This document shows, in pieces, positions 2,708 to 58,003 of a stretch of DNA of 64,000 nt. The DNA is from a virus. A program made the position numbers and the translations under genes. The stretch covers positions 1-64,000 of IMG/VR virus record IMGVR_UViG_3300045988_063132; one strand, 5' to 3'. Within the stretch, counting starts at the first letter, position 1; every line of letters begins with the position of its first letter. The notes under the pieces are model-generated. The model made no database searches. It was given only the letters and a program-made list of their open reading frames with translations, and had not been told where the DNA came from.

Positions 2708-2820
2708 TAGCTATTTTGGTGTTAGGACCCGTTCATCCAATACTACTAGGGTCCCTTCAAAGCACCTGTTATTTTTCACCAAGGGGTGAGGCTGATCTAA
2801 TTTATACAATAAAAACTTCC

Positions 2821-2925
2821 AAAATTTCACTGTGAACTGATATTCGAATTCGAATTCGATGAATCATTATTAGCATTCGAATAGAAGACTCTGCAATTAG
2901 ACTCATTGTCTGAATTACCTGACTT
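2821..2925 (-). repeat. DGR template repeat (TR)
   Basis: About 105 bp, located between the fiber gene stop and the RT start. It is collinear with 3069..3173 at a constant offset of 248 bp. On the coding (minus) strand the TR carries AAT codons at exactly the positions that differ in the VR. Confidence 0.8.
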
Positions 2926-3002
2926 ACTTTTTAATACATCTTCATCTAATCAAACCATTCTTTTAGATCCCGCCTTTGTTAATACTCTAGTTTATTATAG
3001 GT

Positions 3003-6000
3003 TTATCCATTAAACCCAGGCTCTAACGCCAAAAATTCATCTTTTGTTTTAACTACGATCTTACCATAAAAACCTAACCGCGAAACGAAATCCGAAGCCG
3101 AAGCCGACGAATCATCAAAAGCATACGAACAGAAGACCCCGCAATAAGACTCATTGTCCGAATAACCCGACCGCACAAAAATTCTGTTACCTGTATTATG
3201 ATGGTAGTAGTCTGCATAATATGTAGTATCTGATCCTCCTGTAGTGTTGCTTGGCACAACATCAGCGTATTCTCCGTGAGCAATGCCAACAATCCAACCA
3301 TCAGAAGAGGCAGCAGTATTGCTGCTAGAAGAGGCAACAATTTGTCTTACATTTGTATATCCTGCAGATGTTAAACCGGAAAGGTCAGTATTTACCTTAA
3401 GACCTCCATCGTACACTATCCATTGTCTACCAATAATATTAATTCCTTGTACGAATTCGTATTTACCATAATAACAATCTTCAAGACCTAAAAAATTACT
3501 ACTTTTACTAGACTTTCCATCCCTGTTACCTAATGACACTGTGGCACCTGTCGAACTATTCCAAGAACGTGTACCACCGGAACAAGGTATGCTACTATTA
3601 TCTGTACTTATATTCGTATTACCATATTTAGCACAGAATAAATTAGCAATAGTTTTATGGGCTCTATAATCAATCAATCCCCAATTTAAACCATTGGTTT
3701 GTGCTTGATTGAAAAAGGTTTCTATAGTTTGATTTCCAGTACTAGTCGTATTGGGTCTGCTGGTTAATTTACCGTCAGTATTATATGCTTCAAATACACC
3801 AATCAAACATTCTCTTTCTTCTTTATAAGAATCGGTAAGCTTTCTATCAGATATATACAATTTGAATTTACCTATACTCACTAGTTCTGTACGATAATAA
3901 TATTTAGGGAAATGAACCATGTAATATACATAATGATAAGCACCAGTACGGTTAACAGTAGAACCATCTTCCCATTTATTACTATCCGTAGAATTTAAAT
4001 AGGCAATAGCAGCAGAACCATCATCCTGAGGTAACGCTAAACATCTTTTAAATTTACTAGTAAGGTTAGTAATGATATCTAAATTACCACCTCTTTCTAG
4101 TGTAGTGGTACTTGTGGTTTCGTCAAATTGGACCCACATAGCGTGTGTTTCTTCATTGATCTGTTCCCAATCAAGAGTGACCTCTTTCACATCATCCAAA
4201 CTACTTATTTGAATAGTTTGAATCTCTGGGGTGATGTATCCTGCTACGGATATAGGTTCAATAGTCCAAGTTTCAGTAGTTGGTAATACAAATGTATTTT
4301 CATCAGTATCCCTTGTAACCAAAGTATAGGAACTTTCCTTTGGTACAGTATTAGAATACACATATACGTCTGCTAAACCGCTAATATCTTTTGCTAATTT
4401 TATTTTCAATTTAGCTCCTCGATACATTAATGTTTTTTCTTCAGCTACTCCATTTGCTGTAGAAGTTATAGAATCTGGTGTGACCCATTTCCTAAAATTA
4501 GGAGAACTAAAAATAGATACTTCAGTACCCTCAATAGTATATTGAGCACCAGTTGGAATTTTTACAGTATAGGTACGATTACCAGAAAGTGTTTTAGTTA
4601 CATAACCTGATAACTTTACATCAACCTTATTAGAAAGTAATTCAGGATGATTGCTAGTAACATTAATTGTTACAATTGTGGTATTATAAGTTAATGTTAT
4701 AATCCTAATATTACCTGCTTCTGCAATAAATGTTTGAGATTGTGGTTTAGCATAATCAGTTACATCACTACAAGTAATAGTATATGTAGTATTTACTGGA
4801 ATTGTGGCAGTAAGTTCAGTTCCTTCCCATGTAAGTACTTTAGAAGTTTCACCATAAGCTATAGTAATAGTAACACCATTAATGTTAGAATCTGATAACT
4901 GATTACTTGCAACAGTTATTTTAACAGTTTCATCTTTAGGTGCTGCTTCTACTTCTACCCATGTTCCATTCTGTCTAGCATACTGTTTACCATCTTTAGG
5001 TGCTTCTGTAACTACTAATTCATCAAAAGTATTGTCTGATAAGTCAACCCATATTTCTTGTTCGCCATCAGGTTGTGTACCTTCGCTTATATATACTTCA
5101 TCAGATATATCTGTTTTTAAAGCATACTCGTTGCCTTGTTTACCATCAAGTAAATCAGCATCTAAACCACTACCAACCCCATCTACTGTCTTTACTTTAG
5201 ATAATACATCTGTAGCAGTATATGCAGAAGAATCTAATTTTGTATTAACCTGAGTAGTAGTAGCATAACCCTTTGCATTTAATTCGGTTTCAGTTACATA
5301 TTCTTCAGGTACTGAAGTAAGATAATTGCCTTTTGGTTGATACGTACTAGCTGCATCAGTCTTAGTTAAATACCCATTAAGATCTACTGTTTCACTTAAC
5401 TTATCCCAATCTGGAGTAGTAGATGTGGCTACATAATTAGCTCCAGTATCTTCAAGATTATAAACATCACCGATATTTACATTTTGTTTAGGTAAGGCTT
5501 CATAATTAGCTACAGAACCTTTTACCTTATATACTGAACCTATAGCAGTGTTAATCTTCTGATCTAGCTCATCTGCAGAAGGTAATGCGTCAAGCTTCTC
5601 AAAATAGCTAGCCGTTAATACGCCTGCAGATTTAGAACTAGCCGAATTGAACGTAACAGACCCAGTAGTATAAATTGAACCAGTTATGACGTTTTTCTTA
5701 TCCAAAGAAAGGCCCATTGTATTCATACTCGTGGTAGAGCGCATTGTGGTCACATAGTCTACAATGTTACTTACCTTTTGTCTGTCATTATCGCTATAAT
5801 CATTAGTGCTTAGTCCTTTTCCTTCCTCCTTATCTACTTTGGTATCTAACTTACTGTCTACATAAGTTTTGTCAGCTTTACCAGAGATTTGTTCAGTAAC
5901 ATCTACTGCTGCTACAGTATCATCTACATACTTCTTAGTGGCAGGATGATAATCTGCAGTAGGTGTATATGTACTAGTATTGCTTTTAGATATATATCTA

Positions 6001-7869: not shown

Positions 7870-10800
7870 CTAATACGAAAAAAATGCAACATTAAAATAA
7901 GTTAAATCATGAGCATTACCATCAGTATCAAACCAATGGATATCAAAATGATCAGAATATCTAGGACCAAGTTGATATGAACCTCTAAAGCCACTAGCTA
8001 TATTTGTATTTGGATTATCAATAGAACACAATACAACATAATCAGTACTATGTGCACCTGATAATGTAAATCTAAATCTACCTGTAGCAACCCTAGAAGG
8101 AGACATTCTAAGTTCCTTAGTAGTAAATAAATATCCAAACGATGCGCTAGACCCAGTCCAGTTACATCTACCTGCACACTTCAATCCGGGTATTGAGAAA
8201 TTACTAGAATCAATATTTTGAGCAATTAAAGAAGTACAAGTAACATTTCCAGTAAATGTACCATTTGTTGCCACCATACTACCGTTATCAAGTACTCTAA
8301 AAGGAGCAGATGTCCTATCACCATGATTTGTACCTGCCCAGATTCTTACAGAGTCTGAAGAAGTTCCCACCCCAGTTAATCCTGCTCTAGAACTGCTAGA
8401 ACCATCTCCTACTGTAATGATACCATCTGCCCATAATTTTAAAGGAGCTTTTGAGTTTGTGATTTTAGTGCCACTAGAAGAAATGGCACCTTTATTTGAA
8501 CCAGTACCTGCTGCTAAAAATGGAGTCATACCATCTGTAGATGGATAGAAACACACTACATCATTTGTTGATCTGAAATAACTACTAGAAGCAGGACTAA
8601 AACGCCATCCACCAATTGTAGCTTCTTCAGCAAATAACAAACCGGTTGCAATATTCTCAAATGAATTTAATGATTTCCATTCAGAACTAGACCAACCCGG
8701 TGTAATTGTAGCTTTATTTGCCATATAATATACTCCATCTCTTTTTACGACATCTACCAATTCTGCTGTTTTATAATAAGTAGCATTATTATTATATTCT
8801 CCTCTAAAATTTAACGCAGGACCTGGGTCTCCAGCAGGGCCTTGACCTCCAGGAGATCCTTGTGGTCCAGCAGGACCTTGTGGACCAGTCTGCCCATCTT
8901 GTCCATCTTTACCTGATATTTTTGTAGGTAATGTCCACTGTTCTCCAGACTTAAGTAAACCAGTTTCTCCATCAAATAAAGCAGTACTTTTCCATATAGC
9001 ATAACCACTTGCAGAAGGAGCATCTACATACCAATAGTTACCATTACTATAGGTACCACCAGAAGTAGGTCTAGATGTCATAGAAGGTCGATTTGGTTGA
9101 GACTCGTTAGATCTACAATAAATAGATACTTCAAAATCACCAGGAACTCCACCTTTGGCTTTTGTAATAGTAAAATCACATACATCTACTACTGGAGAAG
9201 CTGAAGAAGCAGGTACATGAAATTCTACTTTAAACACTGTACTATCAAAACTATTACCTAATCTAGCTACGGTAAGTTTATTATTATTTGTATCAATAGA
9301 TAATTGATTTTGAGCATTGTTATCTAAATTAGTATAAGTTATAGTATATTCACTATTTTCTAATTTTCTAGTACCTTGATATAAATAATAATTAGTAGAA
9401 GCTTTTGCTAATTCTGATGATTCTACTTCTCCTAACCAATTAGCAGCTACTGTATGAGCTTCATTAGTTAATACACCTCTATATGGGCTTTCCCCATCTT
9501 TTCCATCATACAATTTATTAATTGTTAACATATCCTGATATACAGCTCCTCCTAAAGCAGAAGTACATTCTACTTTAAAAGTTACTTCGTTAACAGAATT
9601 ATTAAAGTATGAACCGTTTGGTGATACTACTAAAGTTTCTGTAATCTCGTTTTCAAGAAGATTCCAGTTATCCGTACCTACGATTTTCCAATACCAAGAA
9701 TAAGTAGGAGATTCAATCCCATACGAACTAGCATATAAAGTTATTTGTGATGGGCTAACTAAACCTTCTTTATCGTACTTAAACACTTGTTCTCCGGATA
9801 TTAATACATAGCAAGCATCGATTCCATCAAACCCATTCTCACCATTTTGCACTTTATTAATCCATAAATCCTTAGTAAAGGACATAGAACCAATGTTAAC
9901 TGTTAATCGTATTCTAGCGGAAGGAGACCCTAAAGTATTTAATGTCACTTTGTCACCATCTACAGTAACAGTAGCTACACCTTCAATAGTTTCTGCTGTT
10001 ATACTATCAATATATAATTGGCTCATACCCTGATATGCATACACATAAGTATATACATCAGTAATAGTAATTTGTGGATTATTGCCAGATGAATCGTAAG
10101 GTACCGTCATATTACCATTACTCAGGTCAATATAGAACGCATCTTCTCCAGTTGCACCATCTCCAAGCTTAGCTACCTGAGTTTCATCATAAAAACTTTC
10201 TTTACCATTAACTACAGTACAACGTACTACAAAATTTCTAAGATCCCCAAACATATCAGGACGTACATCTAATGCTTGAGAAGTACCTATTGTTTCATTT
10301 GTGTTTCTATTTACCCAAGTAAATACAGGATTTTCTATATTATAAGTATTGCAATATAGTGTAATAACAGATGGTGTAGGAGTACCTTCAAAGTTAGGAT
10401 TATCGTACATGAATAATCTTTCTCCAGTAATTTCTACCCATTTGGCTTTATCTGCACCAGCAGCACCTTGCTCACCCTTTTCTACTTGCAATAACCACTC
10501 ATCATTTTCTTTACTAGGGATACTAGTGGTTTGAGTAGCCATACATAACCACAGTGAACCATTATATGATACTCTATCATAATAATAATATGTAGTGCCA
10601 GCTATAAATTGTCCTCTATCGATAGGTACTCTTATAATATCTCCATTACTAGATACTTGAGATAAAGTACCAACGAATCTACTATTTTTACCTATAACTG
10701 TACGATCTTTACCTACTAAATTAAAATCATCAATATTATCATATAAAGTAATACTAGGTCCTTCTGCACCTCTAGCAGATATCATAATAGCTGATCTACG

Positions 10801-12673: not shown

Positions 12674-13666
12674 TTATTCAGATACTTCTGCACCAGAAAT
12701 GAAAGATTTAATCATATTCACAAATAATTTATTTGTTTTGATCTGATCTTTTACAATGTACATTTCAACTGCCAGCGGAGTTGTTTTAATATATTGATTA
12801 TCATCAGACAGATATTTATTATCCCATTCCATTGTAATAGTATCATATTCTGCACTCAAATCAGATCTAAATTCCGGAGCAATATAAGGATAGATACCAT
12901 TAGCTCTATGAGTAATACCTCTGTAACCCATTGCTGCATCTTCACGATCTCTTACAATGTAAGCGTTACCCTTACCTGGAGTACCTTGAGTCTTAGCAAT
13001 TGTCAGATTAGAAATCGGATACATTGCGTTGCTCAATAAACCAGAAGGAATCGTTGTCCACATAAAAGCTTCTACAGACACCTGAGTATAACCGTGATCC
13101 AAAGTAATACCTTCGTTATACGGAATTTCTTTGGCTGTCAAAGTCAATACGGCTGCACTAGCACTAGCAATAACTCTAGCTTCTTTATGTTTATTAATTT
13201 TCTTTACAAAAGCATCAATCAGATCTTTCGGAGCTGTAGTCTTAGCGATTACTTCATACGTATGAGTAAACTGACCCGGAGCTTCGTAAATGTCGTTATA
13301 AACTAAACGTAAAACATAACGATGACCAACTTCCGGAGCTACATTAGTAGCAGTAATAACAATCTTATCTTCAGCTTTAGCAACGAAAGGAGTTACTACC
13401 AAAGTAGGATTAGAACCTTTTTGAATAGGCATAGAAAATCTAATTACAGATTTAGTGCTCTTAGCACCTTTCTGATCGTATACATCTTCTTTACCTTCAC
13501 AAACACCTACATAAATAGATTTAGCTGCTGCAGCTAATGCAGTAGATGTTAAAATTTTCTTGTTTTCATCAAACAAAGCAATTGCACCATCTGCCAAAGC
13601 ATCTGCTGTAGAAAAAGAAGCAGGAGCTGTTTTAGCAATCAGTACAGTATTTACTTTCTGTAGCAT
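12674..13666 (-). CDS. abundant structural protein (capsid or tail-tube candidate)
   Basis: 330-aa ORF followed by a strong terminator, an arrangement typical of the most highly expressed virion gene. No motif recognised. Confidence 0.45.
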   Translation of the reverse strand: MLQKVNTVLIAKTAPASFSTADALADGAIALFDENKKILTSTALAAAAKSIYVGVCEGKEDVYDQKGAKSTKSVIRFSMPIQKGSNPTLVVTPFVAKAEDKIVITATNVAPEVGHRYVLRLVYNDIYEAPGQFTHTYEVIAKTTAPKDLIDAFVKKINKHKEARVIASASAAVLTLTAKEIPYNEGITLDHGYTQVSVEAFMWTTIPSGLLSNAMYPISNLTIAKTQGTPGKGNAYIVRDREDAAMGYRGITHRANGIYPYIAPEFRSDLSAEYDTITMEWDNKYLSDDNQYIKTTPLAVEMYIVKDQIKTNKLFVNMIKSFISGAEVSE

Positions 13667-16742: not shown

Positions 16743-17867
16743 TTATGCCTCAACATCCATGATGAGCTCCCCACATGCACGGGGATCGAACAAGCAAATG
16801 CCCATCTCACCTAATAAATGCACGCTATAGCCATCCTTTGCGTTTGATCTAACTGTGCTTGCATTCTTACCATAACCTGCACCAGGAGCAACAGAACCTG
16901 AAGTATTCCAGATTACCATTTCACGATCTTTTCTAACTACCTTAACGATGTTAGATTTACCGTCTCTACGACCCAGATCCAAAAATGTCATTCTATAAGA
17001 TTCCAGCGGTTTACCAGAAACTGGATGCAACAAACGATTGTAAGTTGTATCATCATATAGCGGGAAGTGTTTCAATGTCAATTCGATACCATTAGTCATT
17101 TTGTAAGTAACAAACTGACCACCTAATACTAAAGACTGACCTGAACCAGTTACAAATTTAGTATCAATTAAATTCATAGTAACCGCTTTCTGTTTCAAAA
17201 CTCTATCGAATTCTCTCATACCCATTTCACCAGTCAGAGCAACAAACTTACGTTCATTAGTACCTAAAATATTATAAGACAGGTCAAACAAGAAATCTTC
17301 CAACAGTTCAGCTGTCAATTCAGTATAATAACGTCTATTAGACGGAGCAATCTGCTGCAACAAACCTGCAGGAATATATACCGGACGACCATTAGTACCC
17401 AGTAAAGAAGTAGAGCCATCTTTGTTTACGTTACTCTTGGAGTAAACTAACATACGTTCACATCTCTTAGACCATTCTCTCATAGCTTTCCATTCCTGAT
17501 AATCAGACCACAAGTAAGAAGTCTTACCTGTTTTAGGATCTTTTAAAGCGATCCACAGTACTGTAGAATAAGCTGTACCTGTAATATCATAATCCAGACG
17601 AGTAGTAAACAAGAAGTTTCTCATCTTGAAATGAGTATTATAGTTCAGGATATCGCCTTCTTCGCTGTATTCTTCATAAGCAGAAGCCAAACGAGATACC
17701 TGATGACCAGATACTAAATATTCACCAGGAATATAAGAACTAGATTGTCCATCAGCAATGAAACAAGTGTAAACCCATTCGTTACCATCCTGATAAGGTG
17801 CACCAGATACACGTACCTGATAGTTTCTGTCATCGAATTCCAAGATAGCACCAGGCTTTTTATTCAC
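16743..17867 (-). CDS. putative major capsid protein
   Basis: 374-aa ORF downstream of the portal and the scaffold-like gene. Assigned by size and position only. Confidence 0.4.
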   Translation of the reverse strand: MNKKPGAILEFDDRNYQVRVSGAPYQDGNEWVYTCFIADGQSSSYIPGEYLVSGHQVSRLASAYEEYSEEGDILNYNTHFKMRNFLFTTRLDYDITGTAYSTVLWIALKDPKTGKTSYLWSDYQEWKAMREWSKRCERMLVYSKSNVNKDGSTSLLGTNGRPVYIPAGLLQQIAPSNRRYYTELTAELLEDFLFDLSYNILGTNERKFVALTGEMGMREFDRVLKQKAVTMNLIDTKFVTGSGQSLVLGGQFVTYKMTNGIELTLKHFPLYDDTTYNRLLHPVSGKPLESYRMTFLDLGRRDGKSNIVKVVRKDREMVIWNTSGSVAPGAGYGKNASTVRSNAKDGYSVHLLGEMGICLFDPRACGELIMDVEA

Positions 17868-18600
17868 ACGGAGTCGTTAATTCCGCATCGCTAGTTTTAC
17901 TAGCAGCTACATCTTTCGATGTAGAATTGACTATATCACAATCCTTATTTAAAAAGGATTTCCAGTACTTCGGGTTACTTAACCCTACACCCTGGTTAGG
18001 GGTTAGTCGATGAACCTTCAAGTCTACTTTATCAACACGCAAACCTTTTAATAAACCAGCTTTTATATAAGCTCCTGTGTTTGCGTATTTTTGAATTAAT
18101 CCGTAAGTATATCCACTTATTCTAAATTGCTTACGTAGTTTACGAAAACCAAAAATAATAAATTGTTCATTATTATAAATGTTTGTAAAAACGTATGCTA
18201 TTTGTGGACCTTCTTTTGTTCTTATGGGTGGAGTATTACAAGTCACTTTAAACAAATTGTGTGTTTTTGCATGTTCTATGTTTTCTTCTGCAGTAACCCA
18301 TTCCAAGTTATTAAGATAGTTGTTTAATTTATCTCCATCTATATGATTAACTTGTTCTTTGTTATTAGGATTATCAATAAAAGTCATTGCAACTAATCTG
18401 TGTACTCTATAATCATATCTTTTATTATCTTTAGTAAAAGTAACATGTAAATAACCTCTTGGATTTTTAGTAGGTTTTAAAAACTTTTTACTTCGATGTG
18501 ACCATATTTTTCCATCTGTAGTACATGCATATAAATTTTCCCACCCAGGGATATCTTTCATTTCGTAGCCTTGCTCGGCTGCTGATTGTCCATTGTTCAT
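17860..18600 (-). CDS. HNH homing endonuclease
   Basis: NHIDGDKLNNYLNNLEWVTAEENIEHA (HNH_3-type motif). It overlaps the downstream capsid-candidate gene start by 8 nt. Confidence 0.65.
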   Translation of the reverse strand: MNNGQSAAEQGYEMKDIPGWENLYACTTDGKIWSHRSKKFLKPTKNPRGYLHVTFTKDNKRYDYRVHRLVAMTFIDNPNNKEQVNHIDGDKLNNYLNNLEWVTAEENIEHAKTHNLFKVTCNTPPIRTKEGPQIAYVFTNIYNNEQFIIFGFRKLRKQFRISGYTYGLIQKYANTGAYIKAGLLKGLRVDKVDLKVHRLTPNQGVGLSNPKYWKSFLNKDCDIVNSTSKDVAASKTSDAELTTPCE

Positions 18601-18702
18601 ATTTTTATCTTTAACTCTATGGTTTAAAAATCTTTAGGAGTTTCCAGCAATTCTCTGGATTATTCGATATACGTTACCGTATAAAGCGGCCTCTTAGCGG
18701 TG

Positions 18703-19089
18703 CTATGCTAAATAACCGAACCATTTATCTTCTAATGACAACATAATGGGAGTGTTACCCAAACCTGCCATAACTGTATCTGCATTAGCGGCAGTAATTT
18801 CTTGTCCATTCCACTTTGCAGAACGAATAGTTACAGCTCTATCGGTATCGATCATTACGTTCCATTCGTAATCTCTCTGATCAATTGACATTACATTACC
18901 AAGACCACCAGTAATAGCATCCAAAGACGTGCTATAACCATCATCTTTAGAACCAAATACATAAGAAATAACACGTGTTACTTCATACGGTCTAGTTAAC
19001 ATTGCATTTGAAATCATGTTTTCATCTACAAGATCTGAAAACCATTTACCTCTACCGATCTGTAAATTATTTAAAATTCCGTTATCCAT
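18703..19089 (-). CDS. hypothetical head protein
   Basis: 128-aa ORF between the scaffold-like gene and the HNH gene. Confidence 0.4.
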   Translation of the reverse strand: MDNGILNNLQIGRGKWFSDLVDENMISNAMLTRPYEVTRVISYVFGSKDDGYSTSLDAITGGLGNVMSIDQRDYEWNVMIDTDRAVTIRSAKWNGQEITAANADTVMAGLGNTPIMLSLEDKWFGYLA

Positions 19090-56424: not shown

Positions 56425-56742
56425 ATGATAGTATTACCTACAGAAAAAGTAAAAGCAAAAGTAAATAATCCTAGATTTTTGATTATTTACGGTCGACCTA
56501 AAACTGGTAAAACTAGTTGTGTAGCAGCTCTAGAGAATAATTTAATTATTGATCTAGAAGGTGGCTCTGAATTCTTAGATGCATTAGCAGTACAAGCAAG
56601 AACTGTTAATGATTTCGCTGAAATTGCAAATGCAATCAGAGAAAAGATCAAAGAAACAGGCAAAAAGCCCTATAAGTATATTACTATAGATAATGCTACA
56701 CGACTAGAAGAAATATGTCTATCTTACGCAGGTACGCTCTAA
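56425..56742 (+). CDS. Sak4-like AAA_24 ATPase, N-terminal segment (exon 1?)
   Basis: FLIIYGRPKTGKTS (Walker A) and ITIDNATRLEEI. The ORF stops after 105 aa, before any Walker B. Confidence 0.55.
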   Translation: MIVLPTEKVKAKVNNPRFLIIYGRPKTGKTSCVAALENNLIIDLEGGSEFLDALAVQARTVNDFAEIANAIREKIKETGKKPYKYITIDNATRLEEICLSYAGTL

Positions 56743-57535
56743 ATTTATGGAGCGCTATTTAGTAATGAATAGTGTAAAAGCTTTCTAATTTCTGGAACAT
56801 TTTACCTTTAAGTACGTTAAAGATACATTTAAAGTAAAAGGTAAAACAATCAGAAGCGAAGCAATGAAAGAAAAAACATTAAATAAATATATTGGTAAAA
56901 CTCATGGTGTATTAACTGTTATAGATTTAGACCATGAAACTTATGATAAAGAAAAACAAAGAAAACGAACTTATTTTAAATGCAAATGTAATAAATGTGG
57001 TAATATAACTATAGTAAGATCAGATAAATTAACTACTAAATATTGGATACCAAAGTGTTGTAATAATTGTGTCAATCAACAACAACACGAAACGGCAATA
57101 AAATTACATGAAAACGGTATTCCTAGTTATTTTAAAAAAAGAATTAGTTCTATTAAAGGAAATGCAAAAAGTAGAAATATAAATATGCAATTAACTAATA
57201 ATGAAATTTATAACATTATTCAAAAACCATGTTTCTATTGTAAAGAAAAAGAAGCATATGGAATAGATAGAATTGATTCTACAAAAGATTATACTATAGA
57301 TAATTGTGTACCTTGTTGTTTTATTTGCAATCGTATAAAAAATAAATATTCAATAGGTGTTTTTCTAGATAAAATAAGTAAAATATATAATAATTTTTTC
57401 ATTGAACGTTCAACGACTATCCCGAAAGGGAGTACATTACAAGCTAATGGTAATGGAAACGGAAGCATTCCTACTATTAATTAATAGGGAATATGATATA
57501 GTCTAATCTATATGGTGACATATAGCAGTTCATAA
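56743..57535 (+). mobile_element. intervening sequence with an HNH homing endonuclease (putative group I intron)
   Basis: Separates the two halves of one ATPase fold. Contains the HNH ORF 56864..57484. Confidence 0.5.
56864..57484 (+). CDS. HNH homing endonuclease
   Basis: Contains CKCNKCGN, YCKEKEAYGIDRIDSTKDYTIDNCVPCCFICNRIKNKYS. Confidence 0.65.
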   Translation: MKEKTLNKYIGKTHGVLTVIDLDHETYDKEKQRKRTYFKCKCNKCGNITIVRSDKLTTKYWIPKCCNNCVNQQQHETAIKLHENGIPSYFKKRISSIKGNAKSRNINMQLTNNEIYNIIQKPCFYCKEKEAYGIDRIDSTKDYTIDNCVPCCFICNRIKNKYSIGVFLDKISKIYNNFFIERSTTIPKGSTLQANGNGNGSIPTIN

Positions 57536-58003
57536 GAGAACGTATACAAATTTGCGAATTGTATAGAATATAATGATAAAGCTCAACCTCAAGGAAAATC
57601 TTGGCAAGGTACTGATGTTAGATTGCTTCCACAAGGAGCAGGATATCAATATATTAGACTTGCTGTAAGAAAAGTTATCGATATGTTTAAAGAACTTACT
57701 GATAACTTAATTCTTATTGGTCATACTAAGGATAAAATGATTAATAAGAATGGTGAGGATATGACAGAAATGTCCTTAGATCTTGTAGGTAAACTAGGAG
57801 ATATTATATGTGGAGAAGCTGATGCAGTAGGTTTTATGTATCGAAAAGGTAATGAAACAATTATTAATTTCGATAGTAAAGATGAAACTACAAAAGGAGC
57901 AAGAGCACCACATTTGCGTGAGCAAAAAATAGTAATTGCAGAAAGCAATGAAAACAATGAATTAGTATTTCATTGGGACAGAATTTATTTACCAGAAGTT
58001 TAA
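57536..58003 (+). CDS. Sak4-like AAA_24 ATPase, C-terminal segment (exon 2?)
   Basis: The frame is open from 57536, giving ENVYKFANCIEYNDKAQPQGKSW... before the track TTG start at 57623. Contains LILIGHTKDK (Walker B-like) and ICGEADAVGFMYRK, which are typical of AAA_24. Confidence 0.55.
   Translation, partial: ENVYKFANCIEYNDKAQPQGKSWQGTDVRLLPQGAGYQYIRLAVRKVIDMFKELTDNLILIGHTKDKMINKNGEDMTEMSLDLVGKLGDIICGEADAVGFMYRKGNETIINFDSKDETTKGARAPHLREQKIVIAESNENNELVFHWDRIYLPEV

Follow-up and report, generated by a model that had tools for sequence, protein, structure and literature searches.

The window analyzed here (the whole stretch of 64,000 nucleotides, positions 1 to 64,000 of the IMG/VR record IMGVR_UViG_3300045988_063132) carries a tail-fibre gene, a template repeat (TR), a reverse transcriptase (RT) gene and two further open reading frames (ORFs) in a row (Table 1). 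All of the genes related to this putative diversity-generating retroelement (DGR) lie on the minus strand, as judged from the ORF list. The variable repeat (VR), a copy of the TR, ends 22 codons before the fibre stop codon. The intergenic spacer between the fibre and RT genes (2708-3002) is 295 bp long and contains the TR, and the start of the 214-aa ORF overlaps the 3′ end of the RT gene by 20 nt (1676-1695). Pfam matches to Crass_capsid and CrAss_Ring_3_4 identify the source as a crAss-like phage. The nearest records are the Suoliviridae phages cr1_1, cr10_1 and cr50_1, and positions 153-990 are 95-98% identical to cr1_1 and cr55_1. Judged by gene order, the window covers about 64 kb out of a genome of roughly 97-100 kb, and about one third is missing. 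The accessory gene avd is present in about two thirds of DGRs. We consider the element probably to be an Avd-less DGR of the type target-VR(IMH)-TR(IMH*)-RT, where IMH stands for initiation of mutagenic homing, in the tail-fibre module of a Suoliviridae-like crAss-like gut phage.

The TR aligns with the VR at a constant offset of 248 without gaps, with 27 mismatches in 105 nt. Adenines of the TR on the coding strand account for 25 of the 27 (binomial P for at least 25 of 27 falling on A, 3.8e-10), and the homology of the two repeats stops at 2821/3069. The two remaining mismatches, at TR 2837/VR 3085 and TR 2828/VR 3076, are C-to-A on the plus strand and G-to-T on the coding strand; the adenine differences at 2826 and 2825 lie 3′ of both. 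An earlier note on this DNA, made from the sequence alone, had reported two C-to-A differences at the 3′ ends of the repeats, and they were found at exactly those places. As the two repeats stay in register from end to end with no gap, these differences cannot be artefacts of the alignment.

Searching with the TR's non-adenine positions as a pattern, one without bias as regards the 3′ end, brought up 28 further metagenome loci. The pooled set comprised 31 TR copies, 18 of which, in relatives, are identical to the TR of the window, and 22 distinct full VRs in register. These 22 VRs share this TR, and most adenine positions show up to four different bases. At one locus a 100% identical RT is accompanied by a different VR, and homologous fibres of relatives bear differently diversified VRs. 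Such a diversity of VRs among relatives that have one TR in common shows that the element was active in this phage lineage. Features expected of a DGR were found: an adenine-biased TR/VR pair, a VR inside the target gene's 3′ end and diversification of the VR among relatives. In some loci the TR itself has changed. The TRs of L166, L168, L188, L004 and L179 (reverse strand, ~12775-12960) have lost adenines despite TR-type flanks; that of L179 bears about 10 A-to-N changes in its 3′ half that are not those of its own VR, and either self-homing into the TR or erosion of the TR could explain them.

The RT matches Pfam RVT_1 at 1.7e-20 and the reverse transcriptase PHROG 1423 at 7e-108. Its translation contains LPIGNYISQ and YCDD, which are DGR-type motifs. 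With RVT_1, [I/L]GxxxSQ and YxDD all present, the enzyme has the features of a DGR-type RT. It is similar to the RTs of other crAss-like and Bacteroides phages and shares 29.5% identity with the RT of Bordetella phage BIP-1. A protein search of viral contigs yielded 123 related stretches, 80 of which were kept. Four loci have an RT 94-100% identical to that of the window together with the same TR, a sister group of about 40 loci has an RT roughly 65% identical and a different TR, and more distant groups are near 50% identity. In nearly all of these relatives the RT is directly preceded by a TR/VR pair, the order being VR, then the TR after 170-270 nt and the RT after a further 100-145 nt. With spacing as compact as this, found at about 50 related loci, no gene fits at the canonical Avd site. 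In the window, the spacer has no minus-strand ORF of at least 40 aa; the earlier note had likewise seen no space for an Avd ORF there.

Avd was also sought elsewhere with the profiles bAvd (PF22296) and 23S_rRNA_IVP/Avd-like (PF05635). The seven ORFs around the cassette gave no Avd match in Pfam at E up to 1. The 66 non-overlapping window ORFs of 60-300 aa, scanned as ten concatenates, had no match to either profile at E up to 0.05, and ten larger ORFs had none at E up to 0.01, which brings the number of ORFs covered to 76. As a positive control, the Avd of phage BIP-1 (BPP-1-type, taken from its genome record) matched PF22296 at 7e-36; therefore, the method detects a canonical Avd. For the part missing from the window, we turned to cr10_1, a complete relative with a DGR (63% RT identity), and no Avd was found in ten small genes from its corresponding 34 kb. 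The claim that this DGR has no recognisable Avd gene thus stands, and an Avd homolog elsewhere in the phage, which would have spoken against it, was encountered neither in the window nor in these genes of cr10_1.

Table 1. Features of the DGR locus in the window.
Feature	Position	Strand	Basis
DGR target gene, collagen-repeat tail fibre, 1485 aa	3003-7460	minus	ORF; VR near 3′ end
VR	3069-3173	minus	ungapped copy of TR at offset 248
IMH-like VR 3′ end	3069-3086	minus	coding strand GTTTCGCGGTTAGGTTTT; family consensus GGTTCGCGGTT[A/G]GG[T/C]TTTT
TR, non-coding, 36 adenines in 106 nt	2821-2925	minus	repeat alignment
IMH*-like TR 3′ end	2821-2838	minus	coding strand AGTTCACAGTGAAATTTT; TGA in VR reading frame
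Spacer RNA (P1 hairpin, A-run, P2 stem)	2711-2788	minus	Rfam RT-18/RT-17 match, covariation
DGR RT, 343 aa	1676-2707	minus	Pfam RVT_1, PHROG 1423, motifs
214-aa ORF	1051-1695	minus	family, AlphaFold model, neighbourhood in relatives
291-aa fibre-like ORF	174-1049	minus	

The 22 VRs show where adenine variability ends. Most adenines from 2925 to 2841 vary, many of them among three or four bases, and the last variable adenine is TR 2841. From 2838 to 2821 all of the VRs read GGTTCGCGGTT[A/G]GG[T/C]TTTT, where the TR reads AGTTCACAGTGAAATTTT. In these last 18 nt the VRs differ from the TR at fixed positions only, six in number, with no adenine-type variability: A2838, A2833, A2831, A2826 and A2825 are replaced by G, and G2828 by T (VR 3076), in 22/22 VRs. 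The two sites polymorphic among the VRs, 3075 (A/G) and 3072 (T/C), are synonymous and co-vary with the downstream flank lineage. Only the window genome has the difference at 2837/3085; the other 21 VRs retain the G of the TR. Their codon at this site is GGT (Gly of a conserved GSRLG), and that of the window is GTT (Val); consequently the VR ends with GSRLG in 21/22 cases and with VSRLG here. A point mutation, a rare misincorporation at a non-adenine or an error may lie behind this difference, which is not an IMH feature. The earlier note had read the two non-adenine differences as the mark of an IMH/IMH* pair. Mapping by homologous DGRs, as it had proposed, places the invariant zone at the very segment it had named (2821-2838/3069-3086), but of its two differences only 2828/3076 is stable, and most of the differences between IMH and IMH* are fixed A-to-G changes instead.

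The stable G-to-T difference has a consequence for the reading frame. In the frame of the VR, the TR reads CAG TGA AAT and the VRs read CGG TTA/TTG GGT, so that the TGA corresponds to a Leu codon in every VR. If G2828 were transferred faithfully from the TR, the fibre would stop 24 codons early; the 3′ limit of transfer is therefore probably upstream of 2828. The same design recurs in the sister group (40 loci), with CAGTGAAAT in the TR and CGGTGCAAG fixed in the VRs, corresponding to codons CAG TGA AAT and CGG TGC AAG, respectively. Within the 65%-identity RT group, the TRs likewise keep the motif CAGTGAAATTTTGG, although their VR ends differ. Two unusual loci bear on the same boundary. In the altered TR of L179, which has TR flanks on both sides, the 3′-most change is at 2838 and the five downstream adenines are unchanged. 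L167 (reverse strand, ~8350-8700) carries a VR/TR fusion with a junction between 2831 and 2828, and its fibre ends with ...GFGSR* at the TGA of the TR, followed by the spacer and an intact RT. Both, the VR/TR fusion on contig UEPJ01000760 and the mutagenised TR on contig ULSO01098578, would fit a transfer limit between 2838 and 2828, and recombination or an assembly artefact is possible in either case.

According to the survey by Wu et al., IMH and IMH* are recognized as an imperfect repeat after the A-to-N zone with a GC-rich start, and such imperfect terminal repeats are found in nearly all DGRs (PMC5758913). The segments at 3069-3086 and 2821-2838 show this signature, including the GC-rich beginning. 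No GC-rich inverted repeat or cruciform was found 3′ of the VR; the DNA fold of 2930-3090 has a z-score of -0.34 and contains only a weak AT-rich hairpin. A GC-rich inverted repeat follows the IMH in only 34% of the DGRs in the same survey (PMC5758913).

Several points weigh against the proposed reading of the element. Fixed A-to-G changes also occur inside the body of the VR, at 2924 and 2892, in 22/22 VRs. Adenine invariance by itself is therefore no proof of a position outside the mutagenised tract, and that of the terminal adenines could be due to selection on the G-S-R-L-G residues and not to lack of transfer. The direct argument for non-transfer accordingly comes from the single G-to-T difference. 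The IMH-like segment, at about 18 nt, is shorter than the 34 bp of BPP-1 and is not followed by a GC-rich inverted repeat. Beyond the window, the absence of Avd is read from a relative with only 63% RT identity. The element corresponds to Architecture A1 of Wu et al. and looks like their lineage 3 by its features, as distinct from placement in an RT tree. All of the evidence is computational.

Some of these points would suit a DGR with no functional IMH/IMH* pair, in which the terminal differences arose by drift and purifying selection on the fibre and the direction of homing is set only by the priming spacer RNA attached to the TR. One of the two non-adenine differences is private. Of the six fixed terminal differences, five are A-to-G, a change that could also come from selection on mutagenised positions, as at 2924 and 2892. 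The segment, besides being short, has no GC-rich inverted repeat behind it, and IMH and IMH* were reported to be identical in crAssphage LMMB (PMC7290462). However, G-to-T at 2828/3076 occurs in 22/22 VRs, and because a faithful copy of the TR there would put a stop 24 codons before the fibre end, this site cannot be overwritten routinely. The sister group repeats the arrangement, and imperfect terminal repeats are nearly universal among DGRs (PMC5758913). We therefore regard a DGR without a functional pair as improbable, and read the ends of the two repeats as a probable IMH/IMH* pair.

Structure prediction downstream of the TR, another check proposed in the earlier note, revealed a covarying RNA similar to RT-18 and RT-17 of Rfam in the spacer. 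Compared with the full-length models, positions 2711-2788 score 34.5 bits for RT-18 (gathering score 41.3, E 1e-4) and 27.4 bits for RT-17 (gathering score 40.4), and the spacer of the window is thus below the gathering threshold for both. Among 12 relatives, only L068 passes at the gathering threshold (42.7 for RT-17, against 40.4). In an RNAalifold analysis of 23 spacers from all of the RT groups, the consensus consisted of a 4-bp hairpin, then a conserved A-run, then a longer stem that surrounds a UAGUA/UGGUA element, with compensatory changes in 10 of 12 consensus pairs. The structure is located directly before the RT start at 2707. RT-18 (RF03021) and RT-17 (RF03020) of Weinberg et al. 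2017 are likewise RNAs directly upstream of an RT gene, with a small hairpin, an A-run and a second stem around UAGUA/UGGUA, although the score of the window is under their gathering thresholds (PMC5737381). A long-range pairing between 3023-3034, at the fibre 3′ end, and 2714-2725 (12 nt, one mismatch, 92%) closes the minimum free energy fold (z -1.6). It was dropped because it has no equivalent in other groups and competes with the covarying P2 stem. The complementary segments bracket the TR and the spacer in the transcript.

By analogy with BPP-1 and with published systems (PMC5758913, PMC5737381), the element may work as follows. A TR-spacer RNA would be transcribed, and its spacer part would position and prime the RT. 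The resulting cDNA, with random bases opposite adenines, would replace the VR from its 3′ side, with the 3′ boundary of replacement between 2838 and 2828. With the boundary there, the terminal IMH-like segment of the VR would never be overwritten and could tell the recipient from the donor. No Avd would be involved, and the 214-aa ORF would belong to the fibre module, not to the retroelement.

The 214-aa ORF was the one ORF of the locus that the earlier note considered as an accessory gene, and it had judged the protein unlike the four-helix bundle of Avd. The judgement holds. As an Avd, the ORF was rejected: the hhalign probability is 0.2-0.3%, no Pfam match was obtained at E up to 1, the protein is not a four-helix bundle, and the gene is not tied to the RT. 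In the AlphaFold model (predicted local distance difference test score, 81), a four-strand beta N-domain is followed by three helices and a beta C-domain. The best matches of the model in the PDB are chitin-binding modules of a Vibrio chitin deacetylase and tail-fibre/baseplate proteins of Agrobacterium phages. For residues 69-214, the matches are PHROGs of unknown function (about 1e-26). A search with the whole sequence found 946 proteins at E up to 0.001, and those of the listed matches that are not full-length align to the C-terminal region; they include proteins of phage cr1_1, which has no DGR, and one protein annotated with a carbohydrate-binding domain.

The N-domain (residues 1-65) defines a family with the motif IP..VEYLG..EWAVRWDV...Y.YNE...PT. 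In most relatives it is a free-standing protein of 64-130 aa, the start of which overlaps or abuts the RT stop. A profile of the N-domain showed that 61 of 74 viral loci have an RT directly upstream, and RTs also precede the domain in a 160-kb phage contig, a Mangrovibacterium contig and another gut-phage family. At ten loci with at least 3.9 kb of upstream sequence, the ORF comes directly after the fibre gene with neither TR nor RT. Three further loci (L145, L147 and L148) keep only 3′ relics of the RT, corresponding to residues 128-343, 166-343 and 313-343, and two abundant family members (P0167 and P0197) are found directly after GSRLC-ending fibre genes in phages without any RT. Since the small ORF follows fibre genes even without an RT, its constant neighbour is the fibre gene, not the RT. 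The TR-RT cassette is a variably present insert between the fibre gene and the small gene, and the 214-aa protein is most likely a fibre-module protein rather than a part of the DGR. That RT-less and RT-bearing loci are intermingled suggests that the cassette has been lost repeatedly. The ratio of nonsynonymous to synonymous polymorphism (pN/pS) of the small ORF is 0.25 in RT-less and 0.24 in RT-bearing loci, a comparison that this intermingling makes uninformative.

Two observations in relatives concern the same junction. In the ten RT-less relatives, L095, L096, L119, L128, L131, L134, L136, L142, L144 and L146 (at ~3900-4000), the small ORF begins 2-250 nt after a diversified fibre gene. 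A contig with a 100% identical RT (L001, 7013-7387) has a 124-aa short form in place of the 214-aa ORF and a different fibre 3′ flank, which suggests modular recombination just downstream of the cassette.

Instead of serving the fibre, the beta N-domain of about 65 aa could be an RT cofactor that replaces Avd, in which case RT-less phages would carry it as a leftover or for a second function. The overlap or abutment of its start with the RT end in 61 of 74 viral loci would suit such a function, as would its recurrence after RTs in distant phages and the Mangrovibacterium contig and its retention while the C-terminal partner varies (none, helical or carbohydrate-binding-like). The N-domain also has no annotation in any library; Pfam and PHROGs were uninformative on the small RT-downstream proteins. 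However, the ORF directly follows the fibre gene at the ten RT-less loci, and P0167 and P0197 follow homologous GSRLC-ending fibre genes in phages without any RT, so that the common partner is the fibre gene. In the window the N-domain is fused to a domain matching carbohydrate-binding modules and phage fibre/baseplate proteins, and it has no similarity to Avd. We consider a cofactor role very improbable, and a fibre-module function remains the preferred assignment of the 214-aa protein.

An Avd that escaped the search, whether host-supplied, encoded beyond the window or diverged past the reach of the profiles, is slightly more improbable still: about one third of the genome lies outside the window and Avd proteins are small and fast-diverging, but neither profile matched any of the 76 window ORFs under a control at 7e-36, ten small genes from the remaining 34 kb of cr10_1 include none, the VR-TR-RT spacing of about 50 related loci is too tight for the canonical site, and the lineage has been described as lacking avd (PMC5758913).

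Candidate accessory genes of other kinds are present in more distant groups. In L061-L079 (RT ~50% identity), all of the loci have a different conserved ORF of 97-102 aa overlapping the RT stop (5470-5766 in L077, for example), with the motif FKDFNIKP...VFTGS...FPF.TTI...EFT and a match to phrog_19665, of unknown function. It is a possible RT-linked accessory. Between VR and TR, the same loci contain several small target-like genes that end in GSRLC. In another gut-phage family (L198-L200, 2355-2696; L191, 3379-3720), a conserved 113-aa ORF is located between the target gene and the TR, and it has no Avd match in Pfam.

The absence of Avd from a phage DGR, which the earlier note implied to be novel, has already been published. 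Morozova et al. 2020 described crAss-like phages with the order TG-VR(IMH)-TR(IMH*)-RT, no avd and many relatives with incomplete cassettes (PMC7290462). In the survey by Wu et al. 2018, 29% of DGRs have no accessory gene (Architecture A), and RT lineage 3 combines the lack of avd with the order target-TR-RT and CLec3 VRs ending in SRLC/A-type constant residues (PMC5758913). Avd is present in some zeta crAss-like phages (PMC12386605). The present locus therefore is a known Avd-less layout, placed in a different crAss family and with a larger target fibre.

The element is most readily compared with that of crAssphage LMMB and its genus I alpha-crAss-like relatives (PMC7290462). Both are from gut crAss-like phages, have the order target-VR(IMH)-TR(IMH*)-RT at the end of the structural module without avd, and belong to groups with incomplete cassettes, here RT-less relatives and relatives with a 5′-truncated RT. 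However, the crAss family is another one, and the target is a collagen-repeat fibre of 1485 aa as against a tail-collar fibre of 486 aa in LMMB. The six fixed terminal differences contrast with the reported identity of IMH and IMH* in LMMB, and (G/V)SRLG is kept in the VR here, whereas the SRLC/A residues were reported to be lost in LMMB. With Architecture A1 and lineage 3 (PMC5758913), the locus shares the target-TR-RT core without an accessory gene, a constant VR end that may be of the SRLC/A type and an imperfect TR/VR repeat with a GC-rich start after the adenine-variable zone; it differs in having no GC-rich inverted repeat after the IMH. The last 399 aa of the fibre have no lectin domain in Pfam. 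Bordetella phage BPP-1 has the same adenine-specific TR/VR relation, a VR at the 3′ end of a receptor-binding gene and the same IMH/IMH* logic. Unlike the present element, BPP-1 needs Avd, which is encoded between VR and TR, and its 34-bp IMH contains a GC block of 14 bp, with a cruciform-forming repeat behind it; the present element has neither.

As one more Avd-less phage DGR of a described type, the element adds little that is new. The analysis has nevertheless yielded three by-products. The first is a population-level map of the stop of adenine mutagenesis (TR 2841), to which the in-frame TGA of the TR adds evidence that overwriting spares roughly the last 10-18 nt of the VR. The second is evidence for repeated loss of the TR-RT cassette between a conserved fibre gene and a conserved small gene, and the third is the assignment of the spacer to RT-17/RT-18-like RNA motifs. 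How lineage-3-type RTs act without Avd is a mechanistic question (PMC5758913), and this gut-phage family, being abundant and offering dozens of natural variants, would lend itself to testing it.

Some other features of the window were observed in passing. In a stretch of about 2 kb (~46700-48800), no ORF of at least 60 aa in any frame and no tRNA were found. On the plus strand at 56425-58003, ORF 56425-56742 has an AAA_24 ATPase match, and a second AAA_24 stretch is in the same ORF concatenate; a Cys-rich ORF of 206 aa (56864-57484), lying between ORFs 56425-56742 and 57623-58003, is homing-endonuclease-like by eye and has no Pfam match. The major capsid protein gene (16743-19089, minus strand) is split: ORF 18703-19089 corresponds to residues 1-130 of Crass_capsid and ORF 16743-17867 to residues 121-495. 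An HNH_3/NUMOD4 homing-endonuclease ORF (17860-18600) is located between the two capsid parts, which makes an intron-like insertion likely.

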